Shown one piece after another: positions 17,655 to 64,000 of a stretch of 64,000 bases of DNA (the stretch's first letter is position 1; every line of letters begins with the position of its first letter). The translations under genes were made by a program, and so were the position numbers. Source of the DNA: Candidatus Micrarchaeota archaeon. Lineage in GTDB: Archaea > Micrarchaeota > Micrarchaeia > Anstonellales > Bilamarchaeaceae. The notes under the pieces were generated by a model. That model did no database searches. It had not been told where the DNA came from and saw only the letters and a program-made list of their open reading frames with translations. Location of the stretch: positions 19,967 through 83,966 of the forward strand of contig JAHJDH010000001.1 of the NCBI GenBank assembly GCA_018812625.1, given 5' to 3'.

Positions 17655-17660
17655 TTTTTT

Positions 17661-18824: not shown

Positions 18825-18847
18825 AACTAGTTTTTCTCAGCTATTGT

Positions 18848-21257: not shown

Positions 21258-21259
21258 TT

Positions 21260-21381: not shown

Positions 21382-21437
21382 GAAACTTTTCTTATCCTCA
21401 GCATCGGTCAAAGTTTCATCAAACATCCTGTCCGGTT

Positions 21438-21989: not shown

Positions 21990-22086
21990 CTCTCTATTTC
22001 TCTACTATGCCTAAAAAAACCAACTCTTCGTCAGATGCCTGAGCTTCTTCCGATACTTTTTAAACTCATCCAATCTTAGTGAATTT

Positions 22087-23174: not shown

Positions 23175-23264
23175 AACTACCACCTGTGTATGTTTGATGC
23201 ACAAATGTTTTTTAAAATCAATTGGAGTAATGCATTTATCAAAAATAAATACACTGGTGAACTT

Positions 23265-23609: not shown

Positions 23610-23642
23610 CTTCTTTTAATTATTTTCCTCTAATTTATCTTT

Positions 23643-40953: not shown

Positions 40954-43900
40954 ATGAAATCCAGTTATATAATTTTTCTATTGCTGCTTTTAGCAGGTTT
41001 ATCTTTTTCAGCAACTCCGATTTCAGAATGTACAAACATTACTGCTCCTGGAGAATACTACCTGACTACAAATCTTGTAGGTGCGAATCAGAGCTGCCTG
41101 CCCATTTACCCTGCATACTGGGAATCCTGCATTAGGATTTCCTCTTCAGATGTCACCTTTGAGTGCAATGGTCACAGCATGAGCAGGGGCGGCACAACTA
41201 AAGAAGTCGGGATACTTGCCGAGGGATCTAGCGCAGAGCAACTTCACAACATCACTGTGAAGAACTGCAATTATATGCATGGCTATACATTTTACACTGT
41301 CCTGCTTTGGAATGTCACAAATGCCTCTATTACTAACGTAACTGCGATTAATGCTCATAGCAGCACAGGATTCAACGGGTTCGGTTCGCACTATGGGAAT
41401 AATATAAGTATACACGACAACACCGTCACTTCCACAGGAACAGTTGATTCGCTTGGAGTATTCATGACGAGCAGCACCAATTCCAGCATCGTAAACAACT
41501 ACTTCAATTACTCATCCATTGCGGAGGTGAGGACTTCCAACAACATAAATATCAGCAATAATGTATGGCAAAATCCAACAAGTAATTGGGTGCATGGGAT
41601 TTCCATGGAGGATACTAACTACTCGGTCATTCGGAACCACACCATGACCAACCGCTGCGAACTTTGTATAGAACTTAATAACGGGTGCAACTACAATATT
41701 ATTGATAACAACACGTTTCGCGGAGGTCTGACTAGCTATGCAATTCTGATCACTGATCCTTCCAGAAATTCTTGGTACAACAATGTGACCAATAACGTTG
41801 TTGAGGATGGGCTTCAAATCGGTTTTGGGATTACTGGAGCCTACTCATATGTGGTGAATAACACCGTGAGAAACATGTCTCAAACCAGTGCTGGTTTCTT
41901 CATTTCCGATGCCCGAAGTAATTTCTACAACAATTCTGCAGCCAACTGTTCTATTGGTTTCGACCTTAGCAGCGCCACGCGCAACAATTTCTGGAATAGC
42001 ACTTCAGTTAACAATTCCAATTATGGTTTCGTTGTTATTGGCAGCTCGAGCATCAACCAGTTCTTTGATTCTGTAACATACAACAATGGCAAGTCCGGTG
42101 TGTATATCACTTCTCCCAGCACTTCTACATATTTCACCAACGTGACCTCATACAACAATTCCGAGCATGGATATTATTCCTCAAGTTCGACTAGCAGTAG
42201 GTTCAACAACGCAACTGCCTTTGACAATAACATGTCTGGATTTTACATGTCTGGAGGCTCATCATGGATTGACTATTCAAAATCATACAACAACACTGAG
42301 TATGGAGCATATCTTACAGGCCCTCAGGGCGGCCAATATCGTCACAGCACATACCACGACAATGGTTTGAGTGGCATATATGGCTATAATCTTCGCACAA
42401 GCCAGATAACAAACAACACAGTATATTCAAACAATGGCCATGGTATCTTCACTGAAAGAGGCTATGGAAATACTATCCAGCAAAATCAGATATATGGCAA
42501 TAATGGAACTGGAATTGGTGCAGCAGGAATCGCCCCATCAGAAATTTCTGGCATTTACATGTATGACAATAACATCTACGCAAATAGTCTCAATGGAATT
42601 ATCCTGGAATATGTAAGGTATGCCAACTTGCAGAGAAACAACATCACATCAAACACAAGTCCTCTTTTCATCATGAATAGAAGCTACCAGAATACAATAC
42701 AGAACAATCGTCTTTATTCATCAGGTACAGCATTCTATCTTCTGGATCTTCCATATCGAACTACGAGGAGCGCAATAAGGTACAACAACATAAGTGATGT
42801 TGATTATGCAGTATCTGCATGGAATGCATCAAGCAATCATTTCACAGGAAACATCAAGACCAATGTTGCACTTGCAGACTATCTTCTCAACAGCTCAAAT
42901 GACAACATAATTCAGGAAGAACTTTTCAACGAATCAAACAGGTCAATAGTAGCCTCATCAACTCTCGGATCAATGCTTCTCAATTTGACTATGGTCAACT
43001 TCAGCCAGGGCGGAACCAATCTTAGTATCTTTTCCATGAATGACAGCATGGCTTCAGGTGAAACATATTACATCAACTGGTCTGATCAGCCATCTGGTGC
43101 GCCATATGCATCTCTTCATGGTAAATTTGTCAGGATTGAAGCTTCATCAGGAACTCCATCCATAGACACTGCAATTTGGTACTGGCTTGAATCAGAACTC
43201 AGTGGATATGATGAATCCCTCTTCGATATTTTCAAGTACAATTCAACATGGACTGATATGAATGCGAGTTTGGATACTGGTGCAAACACCCTTACTCTAT
43301 CATCTGCATCTCCACTTAGTTCCTTTGGTATTTTGCAAGGTGGCGGTGTTGTGAATAATCCTCCAGATGTACAGCTTAATCTTCCTGCAAACGGAACTAC
43401 CTTGACATCAAGCACTGTGATTTTCAATTTCACAGGAACTGATTATGAGCAGACAGCACTTTCATGTTCAATCTATCTGGACAGTCTCCTCAACCAGACA
43501 AACGCCACAGTACAGAACGGAACCCTTACTCCATTTACACTATCAAATATTGCCAATGGTCCACATACATGGTATGTCAACTGCAGCGACGGCAATCTTA
43601 CTGATGCAAGCGACATCTGGACATTCACGATGAATGCCCCGGTCAACTGTCCAATAATAACAACTCCTGGAAATTATCTCCAGCCATTTGATTACACTGG
43701 CGCTCCAAATGATGCATCAGAAGTTCTGCCTTCAGCATTTGCATGTGTAAAAATTGCATCCTCAGATGTTGTCTTTGACTGCAATGGGTACAGTATAACG
43801 AATGACGGGACACCAGACCCGACCATGGGAGTTGTGCTCAATGGTTCGATAAACAATGTTACTTTGCAGAACTGCCCATCAATCTCTGGTTATTCATTTG

Positions 43901-49965: not shown

Positions 49966-52512
49966 TTATTTTTTATTATCCTTTCTCTTTTGTTTTAATC
50001 TCTCTTTTAGAGAAAGTTTTGCTTTTGCCGTAGTTTTTTCAGTATTTTTAGTTTCTTTTTTTGTCTCTGGTTTTGATTTTGCTGCTGGAGGATGTGCTGG
50101 TTTTGTTGCAGCTCTAATTGAAGGTGGCGGAGCTGGCGGTGGATCATCATTATCTTCCTCCTCGACATCATCCAGTGCTTTTGAAGCTGGTGCTGATGAA
50201 ACATTGTTTTCTTTTATCATCTTCGGTTCATCTGGAATTTGCACTACTCCAAGCTTTCTTTTGCTTAGCTCTTCCTGGACTATCTGTTTGAATATTGGCT
50301 CCCATTTGTCCCAAGCATCACCAAAATCAATTCCGCCCTGTTCATTTTCCATTGCAACCAGATGTCTTGTTGCAGCAGTATTAACTTTCAGTACAAAATC
50401 AAGCTCTAACATCAGCTTATCATTTAGCTTTAGGCTTGTTTTGTAAATTTGATCATACATCTTTCCTTTCCAGAATGCCTGGATAATATACTGCTCTGGT
50501 GAAATTCCTGTTTCTTCACTTCTTCTGCCAAGTGCTGGTGGAATAAATGCTATATCAAGTTCTCTTTCCAGTTTTCTAATATCAACATTTTCAAAGTCTG
50601 TCATTGTTGCTTCAGGATTCCTTAGGAATTTTGCTTCCCATGTACACTCTTTGATACTATCCCCACGTCTGAATCTGAAGATTTCGACAAATTTCTTTTC
50701 TTCAATGTCTGTTTCATATTCAAAACCAAGAACTCTGTATATTCTTCCCTTCCTACCAAACCTGATTTTCTTTAGGAAACTGTATCTGTCTGTTGCATAC
50801 ATACTTGCTGCTGGAAGTCCGAAAACAAGTTCAAGTCTGTCCTGCACATCACGAAGTGATTCTGCATGGAGGTTATAGAGCAGGAAAACACCTGGCTGAG
50901 TGTTGAGGAGATTGATAATACCCTGTACAGCAATACGGGATCTAACTTCGTTAATAATAAGCGCAGCATCACCCATACGAAGAAGTGCATTTGCCATTGT
51001 AACAAGATCCAGTTCTTTGGTTGTTCCTGCTCCTTCTGACTCAGAACTTTGTACCCTTGCAGCACCAATATGGAATCCTCTTTTTCTAAATGCACGAACA
51101 GGAATTTCTTCGATATCCTGGATGGGGATAATTCTTCTTCTTGTACCGATAGAAGTTACCTTTGCAGCAGTAAATGAAGTTTTACCAACACCCTTAAGTC
51201 CCAGAACTGCTTCCGAACATCCAAGAGTTACCATAACATCATCATACCCAGCAAAGAACGGAGTAAATGATTTGAAATTCAAATATTGTGCGTATGTAAA
51301 TGGCTGTTCTTTCATGATTCTAAGAGCTCCCTGAAGCTCACCAAAAGTTGCTGGTGGCCTTTGCAAGTGGCATCTCATTGCATGTCTTTTCAAAACAACA
51401 TCTACAATTGGGCTGTTTTCGTCAAACTTTCTTGTTCCCTTAAGGGTTTGGACAATGTTTTTGAAACACCTCTCAAGAAGATCCCTATTGTATCTGTAGA
51501 GCGTGTGGCAAAGCCCGTATTTCGCATGTTCAATGTAAATTGGCGAGTTTTCACTGTCAATGTAAATATCAGTAATATTCTCCTTATCAAGTGCCAAATT
51601 TTCGATATGCGCTCCCATACCAACAACCCATGCAGCGCATTCTCTTCCCATTTCCATTGCCTGTTGAGGGGTGATTTTATTCCCCTCCATCATTGCACGA
51701 TCAATGAAAAACTGGCGGTATTCCCTTGTTTTGATGCTCATTAAAATATCCCAGTCTACGTTGCTGAACTGTTCCTTGAATTGTTCATTGATCGTTGTTT
51801 TCAGAAGATTATTTAGGTCACTTCCAAGATTTTCTATTGTGTTCTCTTGTACATAAAGATAAGCTTCTGCGTTTGGAACTTCATAGATTTGTACCTTTAC
51901 ACCAAATGGAAGATCATACCTTGCATCATCTGCCTTTACTGGTTTTGCGCCTGGGGGAATATCTAAAACCAAAGATGGAACAAAATAAAGTGTTCGAAGC
52001 CCGACCAAATTCAAAAATGCAGCTCTAAGGTCTCCTGTTTCTTTAACAAGGTCATATAGTGCAGTTGATTTGTATCTCTTCAGAATTCCTGCAACCCATC
52101 CTTTGAATGTTCTATATCCTGCAAAATAAATTGATCGCTCAGGTTCATCTTCCTGATAATCCGCAAGTTGGTTTGCTGCCAGAATGGGATTTAGAAAAAC
52201 GTATTCATAGAATCTTTTGAGCATTTTTTTCCTTCCAGGAGAAGCTGGATCCTGGTTCAATCCATAAATGTCATTTTTGAGAAGTATTGTTTCCAGTTGC
52301 CTGATAAAGGCAGCATATTGGGTCAATACTGAGGTTTTCTTCTCATTTAATTCGACTACAATCTCCTCCTCATAACGAATTGTTTTTATCGGAGATTCAG
52401 TTGTTGAAAGATCTTTAAGATGAAGATTCAAAAACTCTGGAGAAGCAAATTCATATGGGCACTTTGCCAGGTCGACAATGGCACGTGTCCCTTCGAGATA
52501 CAGGTTACACAT
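49966..52512 (-). CDS. FlaI/VirB11/GspE-superfamily secretion/filament-assembly ATPase with a long N-terminal region and a Pro/Lys-rich C-terminal tail
   Basis: 'ENITDIYIDSENSPIYIEHAKYG', Walker A 'GLKGVGKTSFTAAK', Asp-box-like 'RIIPIQDIEEIP', Walker B region 'ALIINEVRS' and His-box-like 'LLYNLHAES'. The tail reads 'PPPAPPPSIRAATKPAHPPAAKSKPETKKETKNTEKTTAKAK...KRKDNKK'. Confidence 0.75.
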   Translation of the reverse strand: MCNLYLEGTRAIVDLAKCPYEFASPEFLNLHLKDLSTTESPIKTIRYEEEIVVELNEKKTSVLTQYAAFIRQLETILLKNDIYGLNQDPASPGRKKMLKRFYEYVFLNPILAANQLADYQEDEPERSIYFAGYRTFKGWVAGILKRYKSTALYDLVKETGDLRAAFLNLVGLRTLYFVPSLVLDIPPGAKPVKADDARYDLPFGVKVQIYEVPNAEAYLYVQENTIENLGSDLNNLLKTTINEQFKEQFSNVDWDILMSIKTREYRQFFIDRAMMEGNKITPQQAMEMGRECAAWVVGMGAHIENLALDKENITDIYIDSENSPIYIEHAKYGLCHTLYRYNRDLLERCFKNIVQTLKGTRKFDENSPIVDVVLKRHAMRCHLQRPPATFGELQGALRIMKEQPFTYAQYLNFKSFTPFFAGYDDVMVTLGCSEAVLGLKGVGKTSFTAAKVTSIGTRRRIIPIQDIEEIPVRAFRKRGFHIGAARVQSSESEGAGTTKELDLVTMANALLRMGDAALIINEVRSRIAVQGIINLLNTQPGVFLLYNLHAESLRDVQDRLELVFGLPAASMYATDRYSFLKKIRFGRKGRIYRVLGFEYETDIEEKKFVEIFRFRRGDSIKECTWEAKFLRNPEATMTDFENVDIRKLERELDIAFIPPALGRRSEETGISPEQYIIQAFWKGKMYDQIYKTSLKLNDKLMLELDFVLKVNTAATRHLVAMENEQGGIDFGDAWDKWEPIFKQIVQEELSKRKLGVVQIPDEPKMIKENNVSSAPASKALDDVEEEDNDDPPPAPPPSIRAATKPAHPPAAKSKPETKKETKNTEKTTAKAKLSLKERLKQKRKDNKK

Positions 52513-52537: not shown

Positions 52538-54166
52538 TTAATTATCCTCTTCTGCTTCTATTTCAGTCTCATCGATATTTATGGCAGATCTTCTTTGTCG
52601 TCTTCTTACTGGACTAAGTCTTATTGAAGCTGTAGCATCATCTGGCGAAATTGATATTCTTTCGTCTCTATATCCTCTTTTCCTAATAACTAGCCTGTGT
52701 TCTTTTCTCTCAAGCATCAGCTCAAGTGGATTTTCAGTGTTTCCTATTCTGTGGAATCTTCTGTTTTTCTCAATAAATACATCTGCGCCAGTTGGAGTTG
52801 TTTCAATTCTTGCCCTGAAATTTACTGATTGAACTGGCTGTTGTACTGGTTCTTGCCTATCTTCCACTCGTCTTTGAATTTGGTCTATGACAGGATCAAT
52901 TCTATGCTTTATTTCATCCCTATAATAATATCCAGCTCCAGCTATGGCAGCAAGTGCTCCTACTACTATGATCCTTTTGAGCCAACTACCTGCTTTTACT
53001 TGCGGGATCTCCTCGTCCCTTAATCCCCCTGTTTCTTTTCCAAGATCACTGACTATGGTTGCTGGTCTTTCTGGAACAACTCTTTCTGTTGGTATTTGTC
53101 TACTATCCGGTTTCTCTGGCGTCATTTTTGGCTCAGGATGAATTGATGGCCTGATTGTACTTTCTCTTGTATGAAGCAACAGAAGGTTCTCAAGCTGATC
53201 TGAAAATACTTCAGTATCTATGATGGCTGCCTTCAGCTCTTCTGCGCTTTGGAATCTGTCTCTTGGATTTTTTCTGATTGCCTTTAGAATAACTGCTTCA
53301 ATTCCAGGAGTGATATCTGCATCTGGCTTTATTTCACTGGGACGTTTTGGTGCGTCATTTTTGATACTCTCAATCAATTCAAGGAGATTCTCTCCCTTAA
53401 ATGGAACATCTCCAGTAAGAAGCTTATACATGATAATTCCAACTGAGTATAAGTCTGCTCTGTGATCATAAGCGTCTTTTTTTCCAAGTGTCTGCTCTGG
53501 TGCCATGTAGTTGATTGTTCCCATGATTGTTCCTGTTCGTGTAAGTTCATCACCATGCGTAGCCTCATCTGCACCATTTGTCAATCTTTTTGCAAGTCCA
53601 AAATCAAGTATCTTTACAACTCCTTCTTTTGTGATGAATATGTTCCCTGGTTTGAGGTCTCTGTGTATGATTCCTCTGGCATGTGCTGCTCCAAGTCCGT
53701 CGCAAAGCTGCACAAGATATGACTTTACCTCATTCCAGCTCAGTCCTCCTCCATTTGCCTTTAACTTCTCTGAAAGATCCTGCCCGTCAAGAAATTCTAT
53801 GATGCAAAATGGCTGTTCTTTGTATAATTCGTAGTCAAGAGTACGGATAACATTTGGATGTTTTATCCTTAGGTTTGATTTAATTTCTCTGAAAAAACGC
53901 GTTGCTGAATCGCCGTCAGTAATAGATGCGTTGCTTAGCTTTAGTGCGACTTTTTCTCCTTTTTCATCATATGCAAGATAAACACTGCCCATTCCTCCTT
54001 TTCCAAGGATATCAACTACTCTATAGCTTTTACGTGCTCCTCTTTCTGATCTTCCTCTTACTATAGTGCTAACTATTGGGTCCTGGCTCTGCTGAATTTG
54101 CTGGAAATTTCTCTGAGGCCTTCTCAGGTCCATTCCCCTATTTGCCCTGGACCGAAATCTTTGCAT
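52538..54166 (-). CDS. Hanks-type Ser/Thr protein kinase with one TM and a C-terminal PEGA domain
   Basis: 'LGKGGMGSVYLA', 'VALK', 'IIHRDLKPGNI', 'ILDFGLAK' and 'YMAPEQ'. The TM is 'IIVVGALAAIAGAGYYY'. The PEGA-like region is 'IETTPTGADVFIEKN...HRLVIRKRGYRDERISI'. Confidence 0.9.
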   Translation of the reverse strand: MQRFRSRANRGMDLRRPQRNFQQIQQSQDPIVSTIVRGRSERGARKSYRVVDILGKGGMGSVYLAYDEKGEKVALKLSNASITDGDSATRFFREIKSNLRIKHPNVIRTLDYELYKEQPFCIIEFLDGQDLSEKLKANGGGLSWNEVKSYLVQLCDGLGAAHARGIIHRDLKPGNIFITKEGVVKILDFGLAKRLTNGADEATHGDELTRTGTIMGTINYMAPEQTLGKKDAYDHRADLYSVGIIMYKLLTGDVPFKGENLLELIESIKNDAPKRPSEIKPDADITPGIEAVILKAIRKNPRDRFQSAEELKAAIIDTEVFSDQLENLLLLHTRESTIRPSIHPEPKMTPEKPDSRQIPTERVVPERPATIVSDLGKETGGLRDEEIPQVKAGSWLKRIIVVGALAAIAGAGYYYRDEIKHRIDPVIDQIQRRVEDRQEPVQQPVQSVNFRARIETTPTGADVFIEKNRRFHRIGNTENPLELMLERKEHRLVIRKRGYRDERISISPDDATASIRLSPVRRRQRRSAINIDETEIEAEEDN

Positions 54167-54197: not shown

Positions 54198-55889
54198 CTA
54201 TGCTGTTCCGTCGTGTTTGGTTTCGACGATCATTTCTACTATTGTGGCATATGCTGGTCTTGTAAGGAGATATCCAAGAAGCGCTCCAAGAATGGTTGAT
54301 TCTGCAAATCCAATGATCTCAACAAGTCCTGAGAAAAGAAGTGGAACCATTGCAAATATGGCCACTGTTGCATTTGTTTTGATTATTCCAAATGCAAGTT
54401 CTATTTTTTCAACTACTTTTCTATTATCTTTCTTTAGAATTTCATCTGTGATAACTATCTGAGCATCTACCCCAACACCCACAGCAGCAATGATACCTGC
54501 CATTGCAGCAAGGTCTATTGTGAATGAACCAAGAATGGATATAAGAATCACAAGCTCTGCAAGGCCAATTAACACGATTGGTGCTGTTACCTTTAGATTC
54601 TTGTATCTAAATCCAATAAGAACTGAAATTGCAACTAGTGATGCCGCAATTGCCATCATACTGAGCTTAAGGAACTCACTTCCCAGAGATGCCGGAACAG
54701 TGGTTCTAGATCCAAGAGAAATTTGTACTGGAAGAGAACCTCCTTTGAGGATTGATTCCATGCTCTTTACCCGCTCTTGAGCTTCAAGTGCGCGCTCTTG
54801 CGGGTTAGTTGCACTAACTCCCCCAGTTACTGTGTATGAGTAGCTTTGAATTCCATTTGTAATTCCGCTGTTTAAAAGGGGTGAACTTAGAAGTCCTACG
54901 GATTCAAGTCTTGCCAAAATAAGAACACCAGTTCGTGTTCTTGTAAAGTCTGCTGCCATCTCGGCATCATCATACTCAACAACCTCAAAGCCTAATCCTG
55001 TGAGATTTGCTTTTGCTGCTGTTGACATGTTCTTTGAAACAATTGCTTTTGTTTTATTGGATTTTGGTGTAAAGTTTGCTGGTATGTCCTCTATGATGTA
55101 TACATTGATATCATCATTCTCAAGTGCAAGTGCATCGTCCATTGATCTAAGTGATTCTTTTTCTCCAGAATCCGCAGATATGTATTTTTTGAAATCTTCT
55201 TTTTCATAGAATACTGCTGCATCTTGTGGCCTATCCAGGAACATATAAACAGGATAATCATTCTTTCCTTTTGCAGTTGTAGCAAACTGTGCTGCTCCCT
55301 CATTATCTACTGAAAATAAAACTCCCCATGCAGCTCCTCCGGAAAGCTGTTGTGGTGGTGCTGGTCTGATTGATTGCGAAAATATTTGCTCTCCATTAAT
55401 AGCTTCCTTTCCATCAACAATTGCCTGGAAAACTCCTTGTTTTGATAGAGTATCTTCAACCATTGCAATTGTAGCCTCATCATCACTTGGGAGCTCTACA
55501 TTTACCTGATTGTCACCTATTGCACGTACCTTTACCTGCGTTAGTCCAAAGACACTGACTCTCTTTTTTATGGTCTGAACAAGTTCATTCATTGTTGTCT
55601 GGTCCACAGATTCATCCAGTACAACTGGTATTCGTGTTCCTCCGCTAAAGTCAATGCCAAATGTTATCCCATGAATATAAATATTCAAAATCGCAAGTAT
55701 GACGAGAAGCACAAGCGCGCCTATTTTTATGTGGGATTCTTTCCACATAAGAGAAATTGACCCAAAGACAATAACTGCCAATATGATTGTGATTCCACTG
55801 ATTGTTGAACTGTTGAACGCTATTATTGCTAGGAATACTGCAAATAATGCGATAAGCGCAAGCATTCTTTTGTCATTGTACATGTCCAT
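54198..55889 (-). CDS. secD: protein-export membrane protein SecD
   Basis: An N-terminal TM, a large extracytoplasmic domain starting 'GIDFSGGTRI', and a C-terminal 5-TM bundle with 'GVGVDAQIVITDEILK'. Confidence 0.85.
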   Translation of the reverse strand: MDMYNDKRMLALIALFAVFLAIIAFNSSTISGITIILAVIVFGSISLMWKESHIKIGALVLLVILAILNIYIHGITFGIDFSGGTRIPVVLDESVDQTTMNELVQTIKKRVSVFGLTQVKVRAIGDNQVNVELPSDDEATIAMVEDTLSKQGVFQAIVDGKEAINGEQIFSQSIRPAPPQQLSGGAAWGVLFSVDNEGAAQFATTAKGKNDYPVYMFLDRPQDAAVFYEKEDFKKYISADSGEKESLRSMDDALALENDDINVYIIEDIPANFTPKSNKTKAIVSKNMSTAAKANLTGLGFEVVEYDDAEMAADFTRTRTGVLILARLESVGLLSSPLLNSGITNGIQSYSYTVTGGVSATNPQERALEAQERVKSMESILKGGSLPVQISLGSRTTVPASLGSEFLKLSMMAIAASLVAISVLIGFRYKNLKVTAPIVLIGLAELVILISILGSFTIDLAAMAGIIAAVGVGVDAQIVITDEILKKDNRKVVEKIELAFGIIKTNATVAIFAMVPLLFSGLVEIIGFAESTILGALLGYLLTRPAYATIVEMIVETKHDGTA

Positions 55890-57016
55890 TAGTCATCCCT
55901 CTTCGTTGCATAGTGCAATACAAGAACCGCGTTGATTCCCCATGTTGCAAACATGTCTCCAACAAGCCCTGCGAGAGCCACTCCTGAAATCTCAAAATAG
56001 GTTGGTATGTGTGTCCACACTGATAATATGAATAACGAAGTAAAAGCAATAATCCCAGTAACGCTCATGGTCAATCCTGTTTTCATTGCATCAAATGCAT
56101 TTTCTCTTGGATCTCCCTTTCTTTTTAGAATTCTTGTTGTAAGTAAAATATCTGTATCAAGTGAATAACCTATAAGCATAAGCAGTGCAGCAAATGAAGC
56201 TAGTGTGAGTGGAATTCCAAAGAGTCCCATTGCTCCAAGTGCAATTATAATATCTGCAAGTGCCCCTGTCAAAACAGCGATGCTAGGCGGTATTGATCTA
56301 AAGAACATGAACACCAAAATAACACTCAAAATTGCTGAAAAAATTATTGTATCAACAACCGTTCCAATGAATTTTTCAGATAGAACCGGACTTACTGTTT
56401 GGACTGACATTGAGTTATAGCTTACATGTTTTTCTATTGGTTTTGAGATTGACTTTTGATAATTTGAGTAGACTGTTGAGTATGCTGTTGAAAATTCGCG
56501 CTCAAGATCATTGGTGCTGTTTGTAGCAACCTTTCCCATACCTGCCATCATGAACAGTTCATTTGCAACCTCATCAATCTCAGTCTTTTTCTCTTTGAAT
56601 TCTGAAATGTATGCGCTGTCCTGGTAAGATAAAATTTCTAGTTGCGAAACTTCTGGAATTTTATCATTAAATTCTGCTTTGAGTTCTTCTGCCCGAACAA
56701 GATTATCGCTTTGTGGAACTTCGATCTCAGCAATATATCCAATAGAAGTTTCATATGAATTGACTGTTGCCTCAAGTCCTTCTTCTTGCAGTTGCGCCTG
56801 AAGCCCTTCAGAATCTATTGCATTCTCAAGAGTAAGTGTCACAAGTGTTCCGCCCTGGAAGTCGACCCCCATCTTTATCGATGGAATGAAAAAGAGCGAT
56901 ATTGCCATTAAAATCAGAGGCGCTATAGAAAGCAATCTATAGTCCCCCTTGTATATATTAGGAAGCATAGAATCATCAGTTTGAATCAAAAGTGCTACAA
57001 AATCAATATAAACCAA
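55889..57016 (-). CDS. secF: protein-export membrane protein SecF
   Basis: 'GVDFQGGTLV' and a C-terminal TM bundle with 'LIGYSLDTDILLTTRILKRKG'. Its stop overlaps the secD start by 1 nt. Confidence 0.85.
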   Translation of the reverse strand: MVYIDFVALLIQTDDSMLPNIYKGDYRLLSIAPLILMAISLFFIPSIKMGVDFQGGTLVTLTLENAIDSEGLQAQLQEEGLEATVNSYETSIGYIAEIEVPQSDNLVRAEELKAEFNDKIPEVSQLEILSYQDSAYISEFKEKKTEIDEVANELFMMAGMGKVATNSTNDLEREFSTAYSTVYSNYQKSISKPIEKHVSYNSMSVQTVSPVLSEKFIGTVVDTIIFSAILSVILVFMFFRSIPPSIAVLTGALADIIIALGAMGLFGIPLTLASFAALLMLIGYSLDTDILLTTRILKRKGDPRENAFDAMKTGLTMSVTGIIAFTSLFILSVWTHIPTYFEISGVALAGLVGDMFATWGINAVLVLHYATKRDD

Positions 57017-57034: not shown

Positions 57035-57279
57035 TGGACTTGGGGGGATCTGCGGCTATTTTATCAAATTTATAGCTGTCGCACCCCCGGCCTCTCCGAT
57101 TTCCTAAATTTTTTGGACATTTCCAAAAAGTTTTTGCGAACGGAGCGCTCTACTATTGCTCGAACTTTTCATTACAAAGTTTTTGATGACCGATAAAACG
57201 ATGTTTCGTTTTATGGTCCATTGAACACAAGCGTTCAATCGGAAACTTTTTTCTAAAAAGTTCACTGAGCTACAAGCCC
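57035..57279 (-). tRNA. tRNA-Ala (anticodon CGC) interrupted by three inserts (D-loop about 108 nt, anticodon loop about 35 nt, T-loop about 29 nt)
   Basis: On the minus strand the acceptor is GGGCTTG/CAAGTCC with G3:U70 and discriminator A. The D stem is GCTC (57270-57267) / GAGC (57150-57147). The anticodon stem is CTCCG (57145-57141) / CGGAG (57098-57094), with loop start TTCGCA (CGC at 57138-57136). The variable region is AGGCC and the T stem is GGGGG (57088-57084) / CCCCC (57047-57043). Exact splice junctions are not resolved. Confidence 0.75.
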
Positions 57280-57361
57280 ACCATTATTGTTCCTTTGAGA
57301 AATATTGAAAAACCCTGCAGTTTAATTTTAATACAGTTGTAGGCACAAAAACACACAACGG

Positions 57362-57369
57362 TTTATAAA
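57362..57369 (+). promoter_or_regulatory. candidate TATA box for the 1650-aa gene
   Basis: 'tttataaa' lies about 45-50 nt upstream of the TTG start at 57412. A GGTGA (57403-57407) sits 4 nt before the start codon. Confidence 0.4.
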
Positions 57370-57411
57370 CACTACTTACACAAGTATATATGTATAGAAA
57401 CAGGTGATTCA

Positions 57412-60400
57412 TTGGGCGAGAGTAACTCATCAACTGGCAATTCTTCAACTAAGCCAAATGTATCTATGAGAAGTTTAAGGTCTCGGATTACCTCCCCTGA
57501 AGCAACCGCAAGATCTTTGATCAAAAAAACTTTCCCAGCAACCTATCATTTTGAAGCACCAAAGATTCCCATCATTAAATTTTCAACTGCATTTGAGCTT
57601 GAAAATGAGACAAACGTAATATCTCGTCCAGGAGATGATTTTCGACATACTCATCCACAACTGCCTGGCAGGGATTATAGCGAGCAGCAGCGTACATTTG
57701 CAATTGGTCTTGTTATTGAAGCAGAACAAATGGCCAGAGATCCTGATGCTCCAGTGCCAGATACAGTAACTCCTCAAAAAGAACGTCTTCTAATGAGTAT
57801 CCTCGCAAATCCAAATTTCAAAAAAGCTGCAATAAAATCTGATCGCTCAACAGAGCTTAGAATTGCTTTTGAAGAACTTGATCTTAATCTCCATTTTATT
57901 GAATTATCCAGGTCTTCGTCTGGAGCATCTGTTGAAGAATTGCGTGCTTTGGCAAAAGCGGATATAGAATTGGCAAATGATATACTCTTATATCACCAGG
58001 CTGATCCGAATTCAGAAGATAGCAAAGGAGGTGTAGCATCAGTACCACCACTTAATTTCATGTACGTCGGACTTCCGATTTTTGAAAATGCTCTCAAGAA
58101 GGACAATTCAAAAACTGCTCCATTTACTCTTGCGCTGCAACTACTTCCTGATTTGCGCTGGATCGAATCCAGAATTCCACAGATTCTTGATGAATCGGCT
58201 AGGGCTCAAGCTCTTACTGATTATTCAAATGCCAGAGGCGTGCTTGACATTTACGAATACAGGCTGCAAAATCCTGTTGCTGGTGATCTAACCAAAGAGG
58301 GTTTTGTTGAAAGACGCATGGCCCAATTAAAACATACTTCAAGATTGGACGATGCACTACAGGTTTCATCTGAACTTGAAGTTCTTAATAACCATATTTC
58401 TGAGCTGATGTCCAAGCCATTGGAACTCCTCGAAGACTTAGCAATACCCGTTGCAGTTGAGGATCTTGAGGCTGCAATTGAGACTCTAGCTGAATATCAC
58501 GGAGCAGTAAAAGCTGAAAGTATTTCCTCTTCACTTACCTCATCAAAAGTAAAACGCCTTGCCCAATTAGTAGAACTACACGGTTCCAAATATACCGAAC
58601 TTCAACTTGCACTTGATGTTATTGATGAGATGCGAGCAGAATTTAAGGCAATTTCTACTGAACGCCCGCCTCCAATTTCAAAATCAACTCCAGTTCGGGC
58701 ATCATCTCCACCAAAATCAAGACTTGATTTTTTATTTCCATTTCCACATGTTGCAGATTCTGATGCTGAATTTGAATCACTCCTTCCAGGATCCGATGTT
58801 CGAAACTCCCAGCTAATCAAAAGAGTAGCAAGAACCCTGAAAACATATTCACTTTCCAGTATCCCATACAAGGATGTTCCTGATGTTTACAAAAAATCTG
58901 TTGCGTCACTTCGTCATGATTATTCTCATGCTGGTACTGTGCGAATGGCAAAAACACTTGTAACCATATCTCATGGAATGGGAATGATTTCTGATGTCTA
59001 TCCAGAATTTCCTACTCCTTTAGAGCAAGCTGAATATGAAGCGCTTTTAGCTACTATGAAATCAACAGATCCATCTTTCATTACTAATCATTTTGAAGAT
59101 GAATTGCCTTCTTCAGAAGCTCTTGAAAATGCATTGATTTTGCTCAAGAATGGTCCTGCTCTTTTCAGAAATCATGTTATGGGTGGATGGGGCAATGGAA
59201 CTCTTCCAGAAGAAATTTGTGGCTATTATGATCCGGATACAAAGCTTATCATTGCTTTTGATGATCCTGATCTTTCAGAGGAGATAACTCAGGATGCAAT
59301 ATATTTTGAATTTTCTGTTGATCCAAACACAAGTCGTGTTCATTTAGTAACTGGATGGGATGCTCCTTCAATTGCATATCTTGATGGAATGCAAGTGGCT
59401 GAACTACTTGAAACTTCTGAGGAACCAACTTCTGATCTTTTTGAGGAACCAAGTCTCGATCCTTTAGCTGACCTTCATTTTGAGCCTCCTGTTGAAGCTG
59501 CGGATGCTGAAGCGCGCGAAGTTCGGCCAGTTCAACCTGTGCCAGAATTAAGTCTGGATGAAGAAATTACTGAACCTGAATCTGAGCTTCGGAAATGGAT
59601 GGACTCTCAGCGCACTGTTAAAGATAGCAAACCAGGAACCCCCCTTGAAGCAGTTTTGGGTGAAGCCGGTGCACCAGAGCCTCATCCAACTGAATTAGAT
59701 TGGCCAGAAGGCATAGAGGTTGAGATAGGAACTTCTGATTTTGATGAACCTGCTGTTCCTCCAAGTGAGCGAATTACTCATCCGGAGATCACTCCTTCAA
59801 ACAAAACAGTTATGGGATGGCTAGAGCTTCCATCAGAAGCTCCAACAACTCCACCTCCACCAAAAGTTTCTGATGATGTTTCAACAGAATTGGTTTTTGA
59901 TCTTCCAAACGTTGGTATTAATGATGAGCTTGAAGCAGCTCTGAATCAAAGTTTCCCCCGCAAGATTGGCGGAGTAGAAAATCCTAGAAACGTTAACATA
60001 AGAAGAGTTGCGAGAACATTGGTTCTTTATCTTGGCCTTAATTCAGAATATCCAAGATCTGCAGAACAAGTTCAAATGCTACTCACTGTCCGCTCTGGCT
60101 CTCCAGTCGATCCAACAATTCCACCTGTTTATGCCAAGGCAGTTGAATCACTTAAGGACAATCCAGATCTTTCAAATCTTATTCCTCTTGCAGTAGGTCT
60201 TGTTAATGCCAGTGAAGAAGCATCTGGCCAGAAATCGACTGCAATGCTTCCAGATTCACCTCCATCTGCGGTCCCAGCACGTCCTGCACTTGTTCCGCAG
60301 CCTGCACAACCACCACTTGTTACTGAGCCAATATCTTCCGTATTTGATCAGCCGCCTGTAGAAGACGATCAAACCATTTTCCAAAGGTTGCAACCTCATC

Positions 60401-62364
60401 AAAAAATTCTGATTGCAAAAGCACTCTATCAAACCGACTGCACTGCAGATGATCTTGAAAAGTTCAGAACAATGGATTCTGGCGTTCGTGAGCTTCACAT
60501 GCAGAATTACATTGCATCTGTTTGGCCGCAGGGCGATTTCAAAAGAAACCTTGCCAGCTTCAAAGAAGCTAAATGTTCTCTCTATCAAATGTTTTCCCTT
60601 TCTTTGCCATCTCCATCTGAAAAGGAGCGTGCAATAACAAATCCTGCAAACCTTTCTTCAGTTCAAAGAGATATGGTTGCAAGTCTTTTTGGAATTCATG
60701 CTTCTGAAGTTACTGGAAAACACATTACTGGTTTTGGAATTTGGGTCAGCGGAGAACATGCAGAGCTGCTGAGTTACTGGGAACAAACTTTGCTCGATGA
60801 TTTCAATATTATTTCACTTTCCCAATCCATGGTCACATCAAAAGCATCGCCCTACCATAGACTTTCATCAGAAAATCTCATGCTCCTTTCATTTATTCTA
60901 AATAAGGATCCAATGCAAATGACCCCGCAGGATTTTGTAAATATCGAAGCTGTTACTGCATTTAGGAAAAAACTAAGACATAATGCATATTTCTGGAGGG
61001 ATGCTAACGAATATTCCATATTGAATGCATTTGCATACAAGTGGTTTACTTCAACAAAAGAGCAAAGACAAAGGCAATGGATGAACAGTTCTGTAAACCT
61101 ATTTTCTGTTTCTGATTTTGCCCATCGTTTAAGATTTGTTAAACCAATGACTTATGCTGAAGCAGATACAAAAATACTCGAAGCAATTTATGAAAAACCT
61201 ATTGCAGAAATTCCTCAAGATAATATCACTGCTTTTGCCAGTGCAATTTTGAACAAAACATATGGTGACAGGGCAAAAGAGTATTATCCTCAGCTCCTGA
61301 GGCTCTTTAAAATCGCAGGCGATCCGAAAAATCTTCGCGAAACAGTTTCCAAGAATGAAAAATTCAATATTCTGCTTGAGTTTTTAGGCGGTCCAAAACT
61401 GGCAGTACAAGCAGAGTTTGTTAAAGTTGCTGGACTTACTGCTCCTAAATTCCAAACCCGTCAGGTTGATGATAATGGCAGAAAAAGCTTGCGTGTAACT
61501 GATAACTACTGCGAGACAAATGATGATTGCTTTACTGGTGTTCAAATAACTTTGCCAAACGGCCAGGTTATTCATATGAATGGAGTATTTGATGGTATGG
61601 GCGGCCATGATACGATGAAAGGTCTTGTTCCAGGTTATATGAGCAATGGTCAGGTTGCAAGCAATGTTGCAAGAGAAACAGTAGAACTTTGTGCAAGTGC
61701 AGGCTGGATTCAGACTCCTGAAGAAGCGCGCCGTGCAATTGTTATTGCTGATCTTGCTGTAGTCTTTGAACAAATCGCAAAGAAAAAAGATCCAGACAGT
61801 ACTTATCAGGAAAACGATATGGGTACGACTGCAACAATTACTCTAAGAATTGGAAATCAGTTTTATGGAATCCATGCTGGCGATAGTGAATACAAAGTTA
61901 TTCGAGATGGAGAAGTTGTCTTCCAATGTCCAATTCATAATATGGGTTATATGATGAAATCTCTTGGACAGGAGTCCAATGGAAAATTCCCAACTAATGT
62001 CATTGTTTCTGCTCTTGGTACATTATCCTCCTTTATTGATATTAATGGATTCAAGCTGCAAAATGGGGATAAAATATTCGTTTCTTCGGATGGAATTAGC
62101 GATCTTATGCTGGATGCAGAGATTGTGAGCATACTTGGTCAATATCCTAATTTGGATGATGCTGGTCATGCTATGCTGAGGCTTGCGGAATCAAGGAAAC
62201 AAAAAGGAAGATATACTTCATCAATACCTCCTGATCCATCAAATGGCTCTGCTTCAGAGGAGATCAAAGGGCATAATGATGACAAGACTGTGGTTTTAGA
62301 TGAGTATTCTTTTGATGGTAGAGATGTGGCTTCATTTTTGGAATCCACCTGGGAGGTTTCATAA
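57412..62364 (+). CDS. giant (1650 aa) cytoplasmic protein with about 1350 aa of unknown N-terminal region and a C-terminal PP2C-family Ser/Thr phosphatase domain
   Basis: PP2C motifs lie in the last 280 aa or so: 'GVFDGMGGHD', 'DMGTTATITL', 'IHAGDSEYKV', 'IFVSSDGISDLM' and 'NDDKTVVL'. It has no TM segment. There is a Pro/Glu-rich central linker and an internal duplicated module ('...RVARTLKTY...' / '...RVARTLVLY...'). Confidence 0.8.
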   Translation: MGESNSSTGNSSTKPNVSMRSLRSRITSPEATARSLIKKTFPATYHFEAPKIPIIKFSTAFELENETNVISRPGDDFRHTHPQLPGRDYSEQQRTFAIGLVIEAEQMARDPDAPVPDTVTPQKERLLMSILANPNFKKAAIKSDRSTELRIAFEELDLNLHFIELSRSSSGASVEELRALAKADIELANDILLYHQADPNSEDSKGGVASVPPLNFMYVGLPIFENALKKDNSKTAPFTLALQLLPDLRWIESRIPQILDESARAQALTDYSNARGVLDIYEYRLQNPVAGDLTKEGFVERRMAQLKHTSRLDDALQVSSELEVLNNHISELMSKPLELLEDLAIPVAVEDLEAAIETLAEYHGAVKAESISSSLTSSKVKRLAQLVELHGSKYTELQLALDVIDEMRAEFKAISTERPPPISKSTPVRASSPPKSRLDFLFPFPHVADSDAEFESLLPGSDVRNSQLIKRVARTLKTYSLSSIPYKDVPDVYKKSVASLRHDYSHAGTVRMAKTLVTISHGMGMISDVYPEFPTPLEQAEYEALLATMKSTDPSFITNHFEDELPSSEALENALILLKNGPALFRNHVMGGWGNGTLPEEICGYYDPDTKLIIAFDDPDLSEEITQDAIYFEFSVDPNTSRVHLVTGWDAPSIAYLDGMQVAELLETSEEPTSDLFEEPSLDPLADLHFEPPVEAADAEAREVRPVQPVPELSLDEEITEPESELRKWMDSQRTVKDSKPGTPLEAVLGEAGAPEPHPTELDWPEGIEVEIGTSDFDEPAVPPSERITHPEITPSNKTVMGWLELPSEAPTTPPPPKVSDDVSTELVFDLPNVGINDELEAALNQSFPRKIGGVENPRNVNIRRVARTLVLYLGLNSEYPRSAEQVQMLLTVRSGSPVDPTIPPVYAKAVESLKDNPDLSNLIPLAVGLVNASEEASGQKSTAMLPDSPPSAVPARPALVPQPAQPPLVTEPISSVFDQPPVEDDQTIFQRLQPHQKILIAKALYQTDCTADDLEKFRTMDSGVRELHMQNYIASVWPQGDFKRNLASFKEAKCSLYQMFSLSLPSPSEKERAITNPANLSSVQRDMVASLFGIHASEVTGKHITGFGIWVSGEHAELLSYWEQTLLDDFNIISLSQSMVTSKASPYHRLSSENLMLLSFILNKDPMQMTPQDFVNIEAVTAFRKKLRHNAYFWRDANEYSILNAFAYKWFTSTKEQRQRQWMNSSVNLFSVSDFAHRLRFVKPMTYAEADTKILEAIYEKPIAEIPQDNITAFASAILNKTYGDRAKEYYPQLLRLFKIAGDPKNLRETVSKNEKFNILLEFLGGPKLAVQAEFVKVAGLTAPKFQTRQVDDNGRKSLRVTDNYCETNDDCFTGVQITLPNGQVIHMNGVFDGMGGHDTMKGLVPGYMSNGQVASNVARETVELCASAGWIQTPEEARRAIVIADLAVVFEQIAKKKDPDSTYQENDMGTTATITLRIGNQFYGIHAGDSEYKVIRDGEVVFQCPIHNMGYMMKSLGQESNGKFPTNVIVSALGTLSSFIDINGFKLQNGDKIFVSSDGISDLMLDAEIVSILGQYPNLDDAGHAMLRLAESRKQKGRYTSSIPPDPSNGSASEEIKGHNDDKTVVLDEYSFDGRDVASFLESTWEVS

Positions 62365-62452
62365 TGAACCACGTTTGTTTATCTATCGAAACATTTAAAT
62401 ATACTATCCCACACATGTATATATTAAAACACTTTATATTATTTACATCGAG

Positions 62453-63178
62453 GTGATGAGTTTGGCGGAACAAAAAAGTAAAACTGAAACTATTACACAA
62501 AGTCGTGCACTTGCAGCACATTCTGAAAACGTTACCAACTTAATGGGCGGGCGTTTGGGTCAAACCTTAATGGAAGGTTTGAGAATCGTCGAAAACGGCG
62601 CTAAAGCTGGTCGAGAATCCATGGAGCAAAGGCTTGGGGAAAGACTTGATTCTGTTTCTAATGAAGCATCTGCAGCAGCAGGAAAAGCTTCAGCTGCTGA
62701 AAAGTCTGCATCAACTGCAGCAACAAGCGCAACCGAGGCAAAAGCCGCAGCAGCAGCAGCTCAAAAATCAGCAGAAGAAACTTCTGACAAGGCATCTGCA
62801 ATGGCTGATGATGTTGCAAAAGTTACATCTGAATCAACTGCAGCAAAAGAGTTGGCAGAATCTGCAAAAAGTTCTGTTACTGATCTTTTGAAAGCACTTA
62901 CAATCAAAGTAGTTCGAAAAGTCGGTGAAGAAGCACAGCAAATAACCGGCGGTGATGCAATTTCTCATTTGGTTAAGTCTGTCAGTAATTTCGGACATAC
63001 ACTTGCAAGATTCCAGGAAAGAATTGCAGAAGTTGAAACTGATGTTAAGGACCTAAAAGCCGATGTACCAGAAGTCGAAGCACTATTTGGGGATATTATA
63101 TATACACTAAAACAAAGCGGCTTTGATTTACAAGAAGCTCCAAAACCAAAAGAAGGAGATAAAGGAGGAGATTCATAA
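62453..63178 (+). CDS. Ala/Ser/Glu/Lys-rich helical repeat (coiled-coil or apolipoprotein/LEA-like) protein
   Basis: 241-aa ORF with 'SAAAGKASAAEKSASTAATSATEAKAAAAAAQKSAEETSDKASAMADDVAKVTSESTAAKELAESAKSS'. The start is ambiguous (GTG 62453 or ATG 62456, after GAGGTGA). Confidence 0.55.
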   Translation: MMSLAEQKSKTETITQSRALAAHSENVTNLMGGRLGQTLMEGLRIVENGAKAGRESMEQRLGERLDSVSNEASAAAGKASAAEKSASTAATSATEAKAAAAAAQKSAEETSDKASAMADDVAKVTSESTAAKELAESAKSSVTDLLKALTIKVVRKVGEEAQQITGGDAISHLVKSVSNFGHTLARFQERIAEVETDVKDLKADVPEVEALFGDIIYTLKQSGFDLQEAPKPKEGDKGGDS

Positions 63179-64000
63179 TGGCTTTAAGAAACCTAAGAAA
63201 ACAATTCCAAGGCGGAGCTGAGAAAAAGGAAGCACCTCCAAAATTACCTGATCCAAAACCAGAGGAACCTCGAGCTGGTTGTGGACCAACTCCAGGAAAT
63301 AATCCAGGAGATCATGATCTAACAAGGGAAGCTGATGTTGAAGAACAAAAGGCACTAGCAAAAAAATCAAGGCCTCCAGCAGCAGAAGCTATGGCTGCTG
63401 AAACAAGAGAAGTAGATCTTGAAGATCTTGATAGCGGAACTGGTCTTGGAGAAGATCCAGGTCTTGCTGATGCTCTTGAAGGTTCTGATGCTGATAGTGT
63501 TTCAGAAGATGCTGATCAGGTTCTTGCTGAATTGCAGGAAGCACTTGATGCAGTCGACGATGATCTTGTTGATCCATTAACTACAGAAGCAGATCTTTCT
63601 CAAACTCCTGAAGAAGAAGAATCTACCCCTCCTATTCCAGCTGCTCCTAAAAAGCCTCTAAGAACTGGAGCAACTCCAAAAGTAGAGGAACCAGAAGAAG
63701 ATGAGAAAAAGCTGGATATGGATGCTGTACAATCAGTAGTCCAGGCAGCACTAACAAAACTTTTAGCTCCTATTGAAGCAAAACTAGAAGAACTTGGAAA
63801 AAAGGTTGTTGGTCTTGAAATTGCCTTCCTAGGTGAAGATGAAGAGGAAGATGAAGAGCCAGACCAAGAAGTTGAAGATCTTAAAGAAAGGGTAGCCAAA
63901 GTTGAAGGCTTAAAAACATCAGTTGATGGCCTTGAAAGTGATATTAAAGGACTTCGCGATCTTATTGATGGTGAAAACGGCATTTCAGTATCTATTGGTC
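63178..64000 (+). CDS. acidic Pro/Glu/Asp-rich protein with a C-terminal coiled coil, 3'-truncated by window edge (not in the ORF track)
   Basis: The ATG at 63178 shares its A with the upstream TAA. The frame stays open to the window end (at least 274 codons): MALRNLRKQFQGGAEKKEAPPKLPDPKPEEP...EDLKERVAKVEGLKTSVDGLESDIKGLRDLIDGENGISVSIG. Confidence 0.6.
   Translation, partial: MALRNLRKQFQGGAEKKEAPPKLPDPKPEEPRAGCGPTPGNNPGDHDLTREADVEEQKALAKKSRPPAAEAMAAETREVDLEDLDSGTGLGEDPGLADALEGSDADSVSEDADQVLAELQEALDAVDDDLVDPLTTEADLSQTPEEEESTPPIPAAPKKPLRTGATPKVEEPEEDEKKLDMDAVQSVVQAALTKLLAPIEAKLEELGKKVVGLEIAFLGEDEEEDEEPDQEVEDLKERVAKVEGLKTSVDGLESDIKGLRDLIDGENGISVSIG

Follow-up and report, generated by a model that had tools for sequence, protein, structure and literature searches.

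Why would a tiny and probably symbiotic archaeon encode a protein phosphatase of 1,650 residues? The question is raised by a locus in a 64-kb stretch of a Candidatus Micrarchaeota contig (JAHJDH010000001.1; hereafter the window, meaning the whole of that stretch), where a giant reading frame ends in a PP2C phosphatase domain and lies near a gene for a Hanks-type Ser/Thr kinase. The best overall explanation, toward which we lean on balance, is that the protein is an active, cytoplasmic member of the PPM (metal-dependent protein phosphatase) family that would oppose its neighboring kinase or kinases and would thereby control an envelope/export module.

The gene and its catalytic domain

The giant PP2C gene occupies positions 57412 to 62364 of the plus strand, with a TTG start, 1,650 codons, and a stop at 62362 to 62364, exactly the frame given in an original prediction made from the letters of the window. 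The product is a protein of 183 kDa with an isoelectric point (pI) of 4.9. The open reading frame (ORF) is real and not a chimera, because the identical protein was found on contigs of two independent runs and assemblies, three full-length orthologs from other samples align end to end (89, 87, and 71% identity), and in four unrelated metagenomes (biofilm, groundwater, aquatic, and marine sediment) the contigs that cover the gene differ by substitutions only, apart from one compensated -1/+1 pair. An assembly chimera or a frameshifted ORF, either of which would have refuted the original prediction, is thus not what the data show. By its content, the window is archaeal (thermosome subunit, family B DNA polymerase, ATP-dependent DNA ligase, SRP54, and Rpo7/E'), and the closest homolog of the 1,650-residue protein is labeled Candidatus Micrarchaeota. 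The maximum 19-residue mean on the Kyte-Doolittle scale was 1.27, i.e., no transmembrane segment, and no signal-like N terminus was seen in the protein. Because it has no transmembrane segment, we predict that the giant PP2C is cytoplasmic.

The catalytic domain covers residues 1351 to 1650 (61462 to 62361, plus strand), as delimited by matches in PDB and NCBIfam, an AlphaFold2 (AF2) model, Foldseek, and an alignment of the family. A full PP2C motif set had been reported in the last 280 residues or so, and each motif could be placed there: ETNDD (1368 to 1372), VFDGMGGH (1392 to 1399), MGTTAT (1470 to 1475), HAGDSE (1488 to 1493), SSDGISD (1558 to 1564), and NDDKT (1622 to 1626). PP2C catalysis is defined by the aspartates of motifs 1, 2, 5, 8, and 11; those of motifs 1, 2, 8, and 11, with an adjacent glycine, make up a binuclear metal center, and the motif 5 aspartate belongs to a third metal (PMC12088040). 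The giant PP2C has the ligands of all five motifs, presumably as D1372, D1394/G1395, D1491, D1560, and D1623/D1624. When 46 family sequences (25 to 90% identity) were aligned, D1394, G1395, D1491, and G1561 were invariant and D1372, D1560, D1623, and D1624 were kept in at least 90%. Because the metal-binding aspartates and the adjacent glycine are conserved across the family, we think it very likely that the giant protein is an active, metal-dependent Ser/Thr phosphatase of the PPM/PP2C family.

Both sequence and predicted structure place the domain among known enzymes. A phmmer search of PDB found Stp1 of Streptococcus agalactiae (2pk0; E = 3.6e-12), the NCBIfam profile Stp1_PP2C_phos (Stp1/IreP) matched residues 1369 to 1595 at an E value of 2.3e-18, and a profile of the family reached tPphA in PDB at an E value of 1.3e-18. 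An AF2 model of residues 985 to 1650 (m05b42cec1af9) had a mean predicted local distance difference test score (pLDDT) of 89.5 and a predicted template modeling score (pTM) of 0.86 when built on the 46-sequence family alignment, and a pLDDT of 34.7 when built on four close orthologs alone. The PP2C fold is a central beta-sandwich flanked by helices, and the model agrees with it, as its top 50 Foldseek matches in PDB were all PP2Cs (E values down to 5.5e-12), among them tPphA, Stp1, PstP, MspP, PppA, and PPM1A/B/K, with target-normalized template modeling scores of 0.75 to 0.82 for the bacterial enzymes. Judged by profiles and by the predicted model, the C-terminal PP2C assignment is statistically sound, though the domain is divergent.

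The neighboring kinase and the conserved gene order

Which kinase might the phosphatase oppose? Across a tRNA-Ala gene, the giant gene faces a minus-strand cluster that had been read as secF-secD-kinase-ATPase, and all of these neighbors could be identified. The product of secF (55889 to 57016) matched Pfam SecD_SecF_C at 2.8e-26, and that of secD (54198 to 55889) matched SecD_SecF_C and Sec_GG. The kinase gene (52538 to 54166) encodes an N-terminal Hanks-type Ser/Thr kinase domain, a hydrophobic segment, and a C-terminal PEGA domain (Pkinase, 7.5e-53, and PEGA, 5e-4, in Pfam; PknB-like, 8.5e-76, in NCBIfam). Next comes a gene (49966 to 52512) for an 848-residue, divergent secretion or filament ATPase of the CpaF/TadA/FlaI type, as judged from PDB (CpaF, E = 6.4e-12; FlaI, 2.7e-4) and NCBIfam (TadA family, 1.1e-17); all of these matches fall below equivalog cutoffs, and Pfam gave no match. 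The ATPase has an N-terminal extension of about 270 residues, and its ortholog at locus L001 has the Walker A sequence GLKGVGKTS and a Lys/Pro/Ala-rich C-terminal tail. A secretion ATPase, one mark of type IV filament, Tad, and archaellum systems, is therefore present in this 848-residue neighbor.

On the plus strand, the giant gene is followed by an operon of seven tightly packed genes (62462 to 64000 and beyond; 15123 to 23634 at L001), which lies mostly past the end of the window and was read on orthologous contigs. The first gene (62462 to 63178, plus strand) encodes a 238-residue, Ala/Ser-rich coiled-coil protein and likely starts at TTG 62462, not at GTG 62453. None of the seven proteins matched a family in Pfam or NCBIfam, and each has at most one or two hydrophobic segments. 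Two are acidic coiled-coil proteins. Another two are paralogs that begin with MAKK(K)RLSRxER; their N terminus is basic, their linker is Pro-rich, and their hydrophobic segments are C-terminal. The other three, likewise paralogs of one another, are anchored at the N terminus, have Cys-rich repeats of the form CG[DN]G, and share an SCGGQGCP domain at the C terminus. The operon is followed by a gene for a HAD hydrolase.

All eight loci whose flanks are long enough for comparison (the window, L001, L003, L005, L007, L008, L009, and L010) have this same arrangement, in which the ATPase gene, the kinase gene or genes, secD, and secF run one way and the giant PP2C gene, the operon, and the HAD gene run the other. 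The order is kept in loci where the giant proteins share 34%, 29 to 31%, or about 32% identity and the GC content is 43 to 64%, and in some of these loci another kinase gene and a gene for a short phosphatase of the family are inserted at the corresponding position. Thus, the closeness of a Hanks kinase and the giant PP2C, first noticed in the window, is no coincidence of the window, and the pairing persists at 29 to 34% identity. Conserved linkage is a hallmark of paired eukaryotic-type Ser/Thr kinases (eSTKs) and phosphatases (eSTPs), and it is seen here. Such persistent synteny argues for functional coupling, without proving it, and from it we consider the giant PP2C to be probably paired with the neighboring kinase.

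The region before the catalytic domain

Does most of the protein serve as more than a scaffold? Tiled Pfam searches, NCBIfam, and PDB sequences (family profiles included) gave no match to residues 1 to 1350. Both the statement that PP2C is the sole recognizable part and the statement that the preceding 1,350 residues or so lack transmembrane segments and familiar motifs therefore hold, the latter with the agreement of the hydropathy profile.

The region nonetheless divides into parts, since the family relatives described below share some of them. An N-terminal domain (residues 1 to 440; 57412 to 58731, plus strand) is common to about 25 family members and carries the family motif HPxLPG at residues 81 to 86 (HPQLPG), in which H81 is nearly invariant. 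Module 1 (residues 441 to 665; 58732 to 59406, plus strand) consists of a copy of a repeat of about 90 residues (residues 439 to 521; pattern FPxPN..D.ELE..LP...R...IRRVARTL..Y...VY..AV..L..YS) and then a subdomain (residues ~541 to 665; 59032 to 59406) that ends in ...GW..PSIAYLDGMQV. The same subdomain was also seen near the C termini of P0048 and P0054, giant proteins of 3,166 and 1,776 residues without PP2C on unlabeled metagenomic contigs, and it appears to behave as a mobile module. The Pro/Glu-rich, low-complexity insert that follows (residues 666 to 825; 59407 to 59886, plus strand; 16% P and 17% E) corresponds to the disordered center that had been predicted and is here mapped by composition. 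It is rich in indels among orthologs and is missing in P0005 to P0010, where module 1 abuts module 2, and we conclude that it is a recent, presumably disordered insert specific to the clade of the window. Module 2 (residues 826 to 960; 59887 to 60291, plus strand) holds the second repeat copy (residues 826 to 935). The similarity of residues 439 to 521 to residues 826 to 935 (hhalign E = 2e-5; BLASTP, 8e-5) bears out the internal duplication that had been noted. Four repeats seen by eye in residues 1000 to 1350 were not borne out, as tile-against-tile hhalign comparison supports that one duplication only.

Residues 985 to 1350 (60364 to 61461, plus strand) form a family-specific, all-alpha domain of about 20 helices with a pI of 8.8. 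Its pLDDT is mostly above 85, and AF2 packs it with PP2C as one unit. The helical domain had no match in PDB sequences or Pfam, and a Foldseek search of viral structures (BFVD) also left it unmatched. Taken together, the helical domain, about 360 residues long, and PP2C are the conserved functional core of the family. The original prediction had spoken of a phosphatase with a large scaffold. The noncatalytic part is indeed big, but it is not all passive, since residues 985 to 1350 are a conserved domain packed on PP2C. We conclude that the region before PP2C combines two kinds of sequence, a structured domain that is conserved as a partner of the catalytic domain and a disordered insert of recent origin.

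A family of Micrarchaeota

How widespread is the architecture? Among 1.84 billion cluster representatives, an exhaustive phmmer search with residues 1 to 1200 recovered 53 relatives, of which 39 had E < 1e-10. A word-indexed search had returned four proteins and suggested orphan status, which the exhaustive search overturned. The representatives are about 0.6 to 2.1 thousand residues long, and when pieces of the query were mapped on them, a common architecture emerged of the HPxLPG N-domain, one to four of the ~90-residue modules (four copies are visible in P0023), the helical domain (about 46 of the 53), and PP2C. The LDGMQV subdomain occurs in some members and an extra C-terminal domain in many, and Pfam and NCBIfam scans of the long members found nothing beyond PP2C. 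Against a family profile, no member scored below 773 bits and no ordinary PP2C above 93 bits, and by these scores the giant PP2C family is a discrete clade.

A phyletic survey, which had been proposed as a check, pointed to a single lineage: every family member with an organism label is assigned to Candidatus Micrarchaeota/Micrarchaeia. We also scanned one genome per GTDB species with a narrower alignment as the query, which yields a lower bound; among the matches listed, the helical domain and PP2C were covered together in Micrarchaeota metagenome-assembled genomes only, and the bacterial matches covered the PP2C half alone. The helical domain and PP2C also occur as a stand-alone paralog of 570 to 586 residues (L009, 6795 to 8507; L010, 7036 to 8796; L008, 7015 to 8727). 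In genomes with the short paralog, the cluster also includes VIT1 and one more Hanks kinase gene, and the lineage of the window has none of these. A literature search returned no description of a giant PP2C family in Micrarchaeota.

Promoters and a shared motif

Are the giant gene and its neighbors expressed together? A TATA box and a Shine-Dalgarno (SD) sequence had been noted before the TTG, the former at 57362. From the sequence and its conservation across family loci, we place the promoter of the giant gene, together with a short leader, at 57360 to 57411 (plus strand), with the TATA box TTTATAAA at 57363 to 57370, a promoter-proximal motif TTACACAAGTATATAT at 57376 to 57391, and the SD sequence AGGTGAT at 57402 to 57408, followed by 3 nucleotides and the TTG. 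A 32-nucleotide core, TTACACAAGTATATATGTATAGAAACAGGTGA, occurs once per family locus (12 loci), directly before the start codon, and is absent from about 76 bacterial loci. The core is identical in close orthologs, differs by 1 nucleotide in L012 (33% tblastn identity over residues 985 to 1650), and differs by 6 to 8 nucleotides at 29 to 32% protein identity. By these comparisons, the promoter and SD sequence are more conserved than the protein. In run X1, a biofilm metagenome, a second contig, of 5,057 bp and with a depth close to that of the first (14.2 versus 16.6), matches window positions 57367 to 57402 and has the same promoter element, then an SD sequence, a TTG, and the peptide PENTSS, resembling the N terminus of P0019; the contig may represent a paralog in the same genome or a homolog in a co-occurring relative.

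In genomes of 60 to 64% GC, the giant gene is called about 200 codons longer, and the promoter element lies inside the ORF. There, it is the lowest-GC 45-nucleotide window of the entire gene (22 to 27% GC), and constraint would therefore act at the nucleotide level rather than the peptide level. The internal elements, each a TATA box, TTACACAA, and an SD sequence inside a long-form gene, lie at 10610 to 10690 in L008, 10530 to 10600 in L009, and 10560 to 10630 in L010, and an in-frame TTG stands at the homologous position in two of the three (L009 and L010). Perhaps, an internal promoter in the high-GC lineages may give rise to two isoforms. We also considered a missed upstream start in the window, since an in-frame HKYICIETGDS followed by LGE resembles an internal peptide of the long homologs, but a stop lies 24 codons upstream with no start between, and the idea was rejected. 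The likeness of HKYICIETGDS to the long-form motif HKxIxxxTG[DV]xLxE arises because the promoter element lies inside the long ORFs.

The downstream operon has a promoter of its own at 62385 to 62461 (plus strand), made up of CATTTAAATATA, then ACACATGTATATAT at 62411 to 62424, and then the SD sequence GAGGTGAT at 62450 to 62457, and this promoter is itself conserved across lineages. The 14-mer ACACA[AT]GTATATAT occurs twice in the window (57378 to 57391 and 62411 to 62424) against 0.01 occurrences expected, once ahead of the giant gene and once ahead of the operon that follows it. The 653-residue operon gene is preceded by a variant, CACAAAATTATATATAT (L005, ~18480 to 18510). As read from sequence, the cluster comprises several transcription units, of which the giant gene is one and the operon another, and an unusual, cluster-specific motif near the promoter is common to them. 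The giant gene and the operon would be coregulated, and the 14-mer may be a common operator or mark a special promoter class of the cluster.

The tRNA gene and other features of the window

The tRNA-Ala gene between secF and the giant gene, whose presence had been predicted, was recovered as a tRNA-Ala(CGC) with three intervening sequences (57035 to 57279, minus strand). Neither ARAGORN nor Rfam, the latter at gathering thresholds and by E value, makes a call on the genomic DNA, and ARAGORN calls the tRNA once the three intervening sequences are removed in silico. The introns are about 108 nucleotides long in the D-loop, about 35 in the anticodon loop at position 37/38, and about 26 in the T-loop, and the tRNA carries the G3:U70 identity pair. 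Contigs of related strains from other runs skip 57098 to 57134 or 57188 to 57243, which indicates, at the level of sequence, a presence/absence polymorphism of introns.

Elsewhere in the window, two plus-strand genes (36453 to 39725 and 40954 to 46188) encode proteins of 1,090 and 1,744 residues with right-handed beta-helix/NosD repeats and CarboxypepD_reg domains, and these are probably surface or adhesin-like proteins. A VirB4/CedB/HerA-like ATPase is encoded at 24 to 1499 (plus strand); in NCBIfam it scores best with the profile of CedB, a DNA import protein (E = 1.2e-25, well short of the cutoff), and it may belong to a DNA uptake or conjugation-like system.

Discussion

How might the giant PP2C act on its neighbors? 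In bacteria, the phosphatases of the Stk/Stp and PknB/PstP pairs return both their kinases and the kinase substrates to the initial state. We propose that the giant PP2C would likewise reverse phosphorylation by the neighboring, membrane-spanning Hanks kinase or kinases with an extracellular PEGA domain, kinase autophosphorylation included. Together, kinase and phosphatase would form a switch over an envelope/export module of the TadA/FlaI-like ATPase, SecDF, and the seven-gene operon. Instead of regulatory subunits, PPMs usually have extra domains in the enzyme itself (PMC5007285), and on that pattern the N-terminal domain, the repeat modules, and the helical domain would serve docking or regulation. 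An envelope or surface target is the natural guess, because the membrane-anchored, Cys-rich, and coiled-coil proteins of the operon and the CpaF/TadA/FlaI-type ATPase are conserved alongside. That the giant PP2C controls a surface or secretion apparatus is, for now, a tentative suggestion, less probable than the pairing itself.

Several points weigh against the switch. The opposition of phosphatase and kinase and the control of the module, and with them the link to the surface, are drawn from a single kind of evidence, deeply conserved synteny, and the sequences behind the whole analysis are from metagenomes throughout. The kinase and phosphatase genes do not share an operon: they are on opposite strands, and the roughly 3.2 kb between them holds secDF and the tRNA gene. 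As a housekeeping system, SecDF may be no more than a bystander. Pfam and NCBIfam found no FHA domain or other phospho-reader in the neighboring genes, and profiles and hydropathy found no platform protein (TadB/C or FlaJ/ArlJ) and no pilin with a class III signal peptide in the flanking genes, although divergent versions could escape. The original prediction had taken the size of the protein to suggest targeting to a large assembly such as a filament base, the envelope, or a host contact structure; a guess at the envelope or surface fits the neighbors. Targeting to a filament base or host contact structure is conjectural, and no platform protein, pilin, or FHA adaptor was found nearby. Finally, the full-length protein scores below gathering for both PP2C families in Pfam (PP2C_2 [PF13672], 19.9 versus 24 bits; PF00481, 16.2 versus 20.3 bits). 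A C-terminal tile of 400 residues reaches 20.5 bits against the 20.3 of PF00481 and 23.6 bits against the 24 of PF13672, and other family members pass PF13672 with 32 to 34 bits.

Could the conserved neighborhood mean either more or less than a kinase-phosphatase switch? At one extreme, the TadA/FlaI-like ATPase, one or two receptor-like Hanks kinases, one or two PP2Cs of the family, and the seven-gene operon would together be a single Micrarchaeota-specific, phosphorylation-gated apparatus for the cell surface or host contact. The giant PP2C would then be its cytoplasmic docking hub, binding several cluster proteins through the repeat modules and helical domain, and the cluster would be a regulon, joined by the TATA-N8-TTACACAA/ACACAxGTATATAT element, with long and short isoforms arising from the in-ORF element of the high-GC lineages. 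We regard so extensive a system as unlikely. At the other extreme, the giant PP2C would be the main cellular PPM acting broadly, and its adjacency to the kinase would reflect conserved order in small, streamlined genomes without shared function. Bacteria typically have one or two broad-specificity PP2Cs (PMC12088040), the same conserved block contains the housekeeping genes for SecDF, tRNA-Ala, an aminotransferase, and the HAD hydrolase, and no adaptor or reader domain connects the giant PP2C to the operon. The synteny holds, however, across genomes of 40 to 64% GC and down to 29% protein identity, the promoter-proximal motif is limited within the 64-kb window to the giant gene and other units of the cluster, and a second kinase and a second family phosphatase have been added at the same locus in some genomes. 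A purely housekeeping role thus seems unlikely to us, if only a little more so than the extended apparatus. A third possibility looks outward, to a giant acidic effector delivered into a host archaeon, perhaps by the ATPase-driven apparatus, where it would dephosphorylate host proteins. All labeled family members are Micrarchaeota, part of the DPANN group, whose archaea are described as mostly ectosymbiotic (PMC8407392). The protein, large and confined to one lineage, evolves fast and has an acidic, disordered insert, and its gene lies near a secretion-type ATPase and surface proteins. But there is no signal peptide or transmembrane segment and no recognizable secretion signal or translocon, the pairing is with the organism's own receptor-like kinases, and the short helical-PP2C paralog looks like an ordinary intracellular enzyme. 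We find export to a host doubtful.

Other alternatives concern the enzyme itself. The PP2C fold might be kept for binding phosphoproteins, in a protein that is mainly a structural hub, and the scores below Pfam gathering, the divergent sequence, an insert of 12 residues after DGMGGH and another of about 25 before motif 11, and a mass that is more than 80% noncatalytic are all consistent with a pseudophosphatase. The aspartate ligands and adjacent glycine are nevertheless invariant or at least 90% conserved in the 46 sequences, which is the signature of selection for catalysis, and DGxGG has been lost in one family member only, the fragment-like P0056. We therefore consider loss of activity quite improbable. 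RsbU, RsbP, and SpoIIE typically have a C-terminal PP2C joined to an extensive regulatory region on its N-terminal side, and the giant protein shares both that layout and the principle that the N-terminal domains would set the phosphatase. Might it be a partner-switching phosphatase that acts on a STAS domain antagonist? A SpoIIE-family chain (3rnr) was a weak match in the family profile search (E = 1.2e-3), and one operon protein had a very weak match to STAS_2 (E = 0.089). The STAS match is not significant, though, and the N-terminal regions have no sequence similarity to those of SpoIIE, RsbU, and RsbP, nor is there a transmembrane region as in SpoIIE. Moreover, the best sequence and structure matches are eSTPs of the Stp1, PstP, and tPphA type, the conserved neighbors are Hanks kinases and not anti-sigma kinases, no partner-switching components were found, and we know of no sigma/anti-sigma modules of this kind in archaea. 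Partner switching is the least probable of these explanations and, in our view, highly improbable.

The switch that we favor resembles several known systems without matching any. Bacterial eSTPs (Stp1/Stk1 of Streptococcus and Staphylococcus, PstP/PknB of Mycobacterium, and tPphA of Thermosynechococcus) are the best matches in sequence and structure, with the same catalytic motifs and aspartate ligands and the same genomic association with a membrane Hanks kinase that bears an extracellular sensor domain. They are, however, about 240 to 500 residues long, are usually cotranscribed with the kinase, and have DN in motif 11, whereas the giant PP2C is encoded in an archaeon by a divergent gene beyond secDF and a tRNA gene, is 1,650 residues long, and has DD. 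PppA of the type VI secretion system (T6SS) of Pseudomonas (6jkv) was also among the structural and sequence matches, and the logic of the PpkA/PppA/Fha1 pathway is alike in that a membrane kinase and a PP2C are encoded, along with an ATPase, in a gene cluster for secretion or the envelope. Here, by contrast, the locus has no FHA adaptor or T6SS components, the ATPase is of the CpaF/TadA/FlaI type, and the functional link would follow from gene order. The Arn network of Sulfolobus (ArnC/ArnD, PP2A, and ArnA/ArnB) provides an archaeal precedent for Ser/Thr phosphorylation that controls a type IV filament machine (PMC7472852, PMC12852372, PMC5007285), but its phosphatase is a PPP enzyme (PP2A) rather than a PPM, and no homologs of its FHA/vWA regulators were found here. 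Among archaeal PPMs, that of Thermoplasma volcanium was the only one biochemically characterized as of a 2016 review; it has all essential motifs in a single domain of 218 residues (PMC5007285), whereas the giant PP2C, 7.5 times its size, falls in a different clade that is restricted to Micrarchaeota. What is new, then, is a lineage-restricted giant architecture and a conserved cluster around a known PPM catalytic module.

Archaeal PPM phosphatases are almost unstudied, and the giant family adds a new helical domain and new repeat modules to them. If the link to the cluster is incidental, what remains is a divergent, lineage-specific, multidomain PP2C that is useful for annotation and otherwise unsurprising. 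Very little has been learned of the means by which DPANN archaea sense their hosts, attach to them, and regulate their own envelopes. If the link is functional, the locus would offer an entry point to the signaling of a symbiont at its surface, through a single phosphatase, a kinase or two, and a limited set of candidate substrates.

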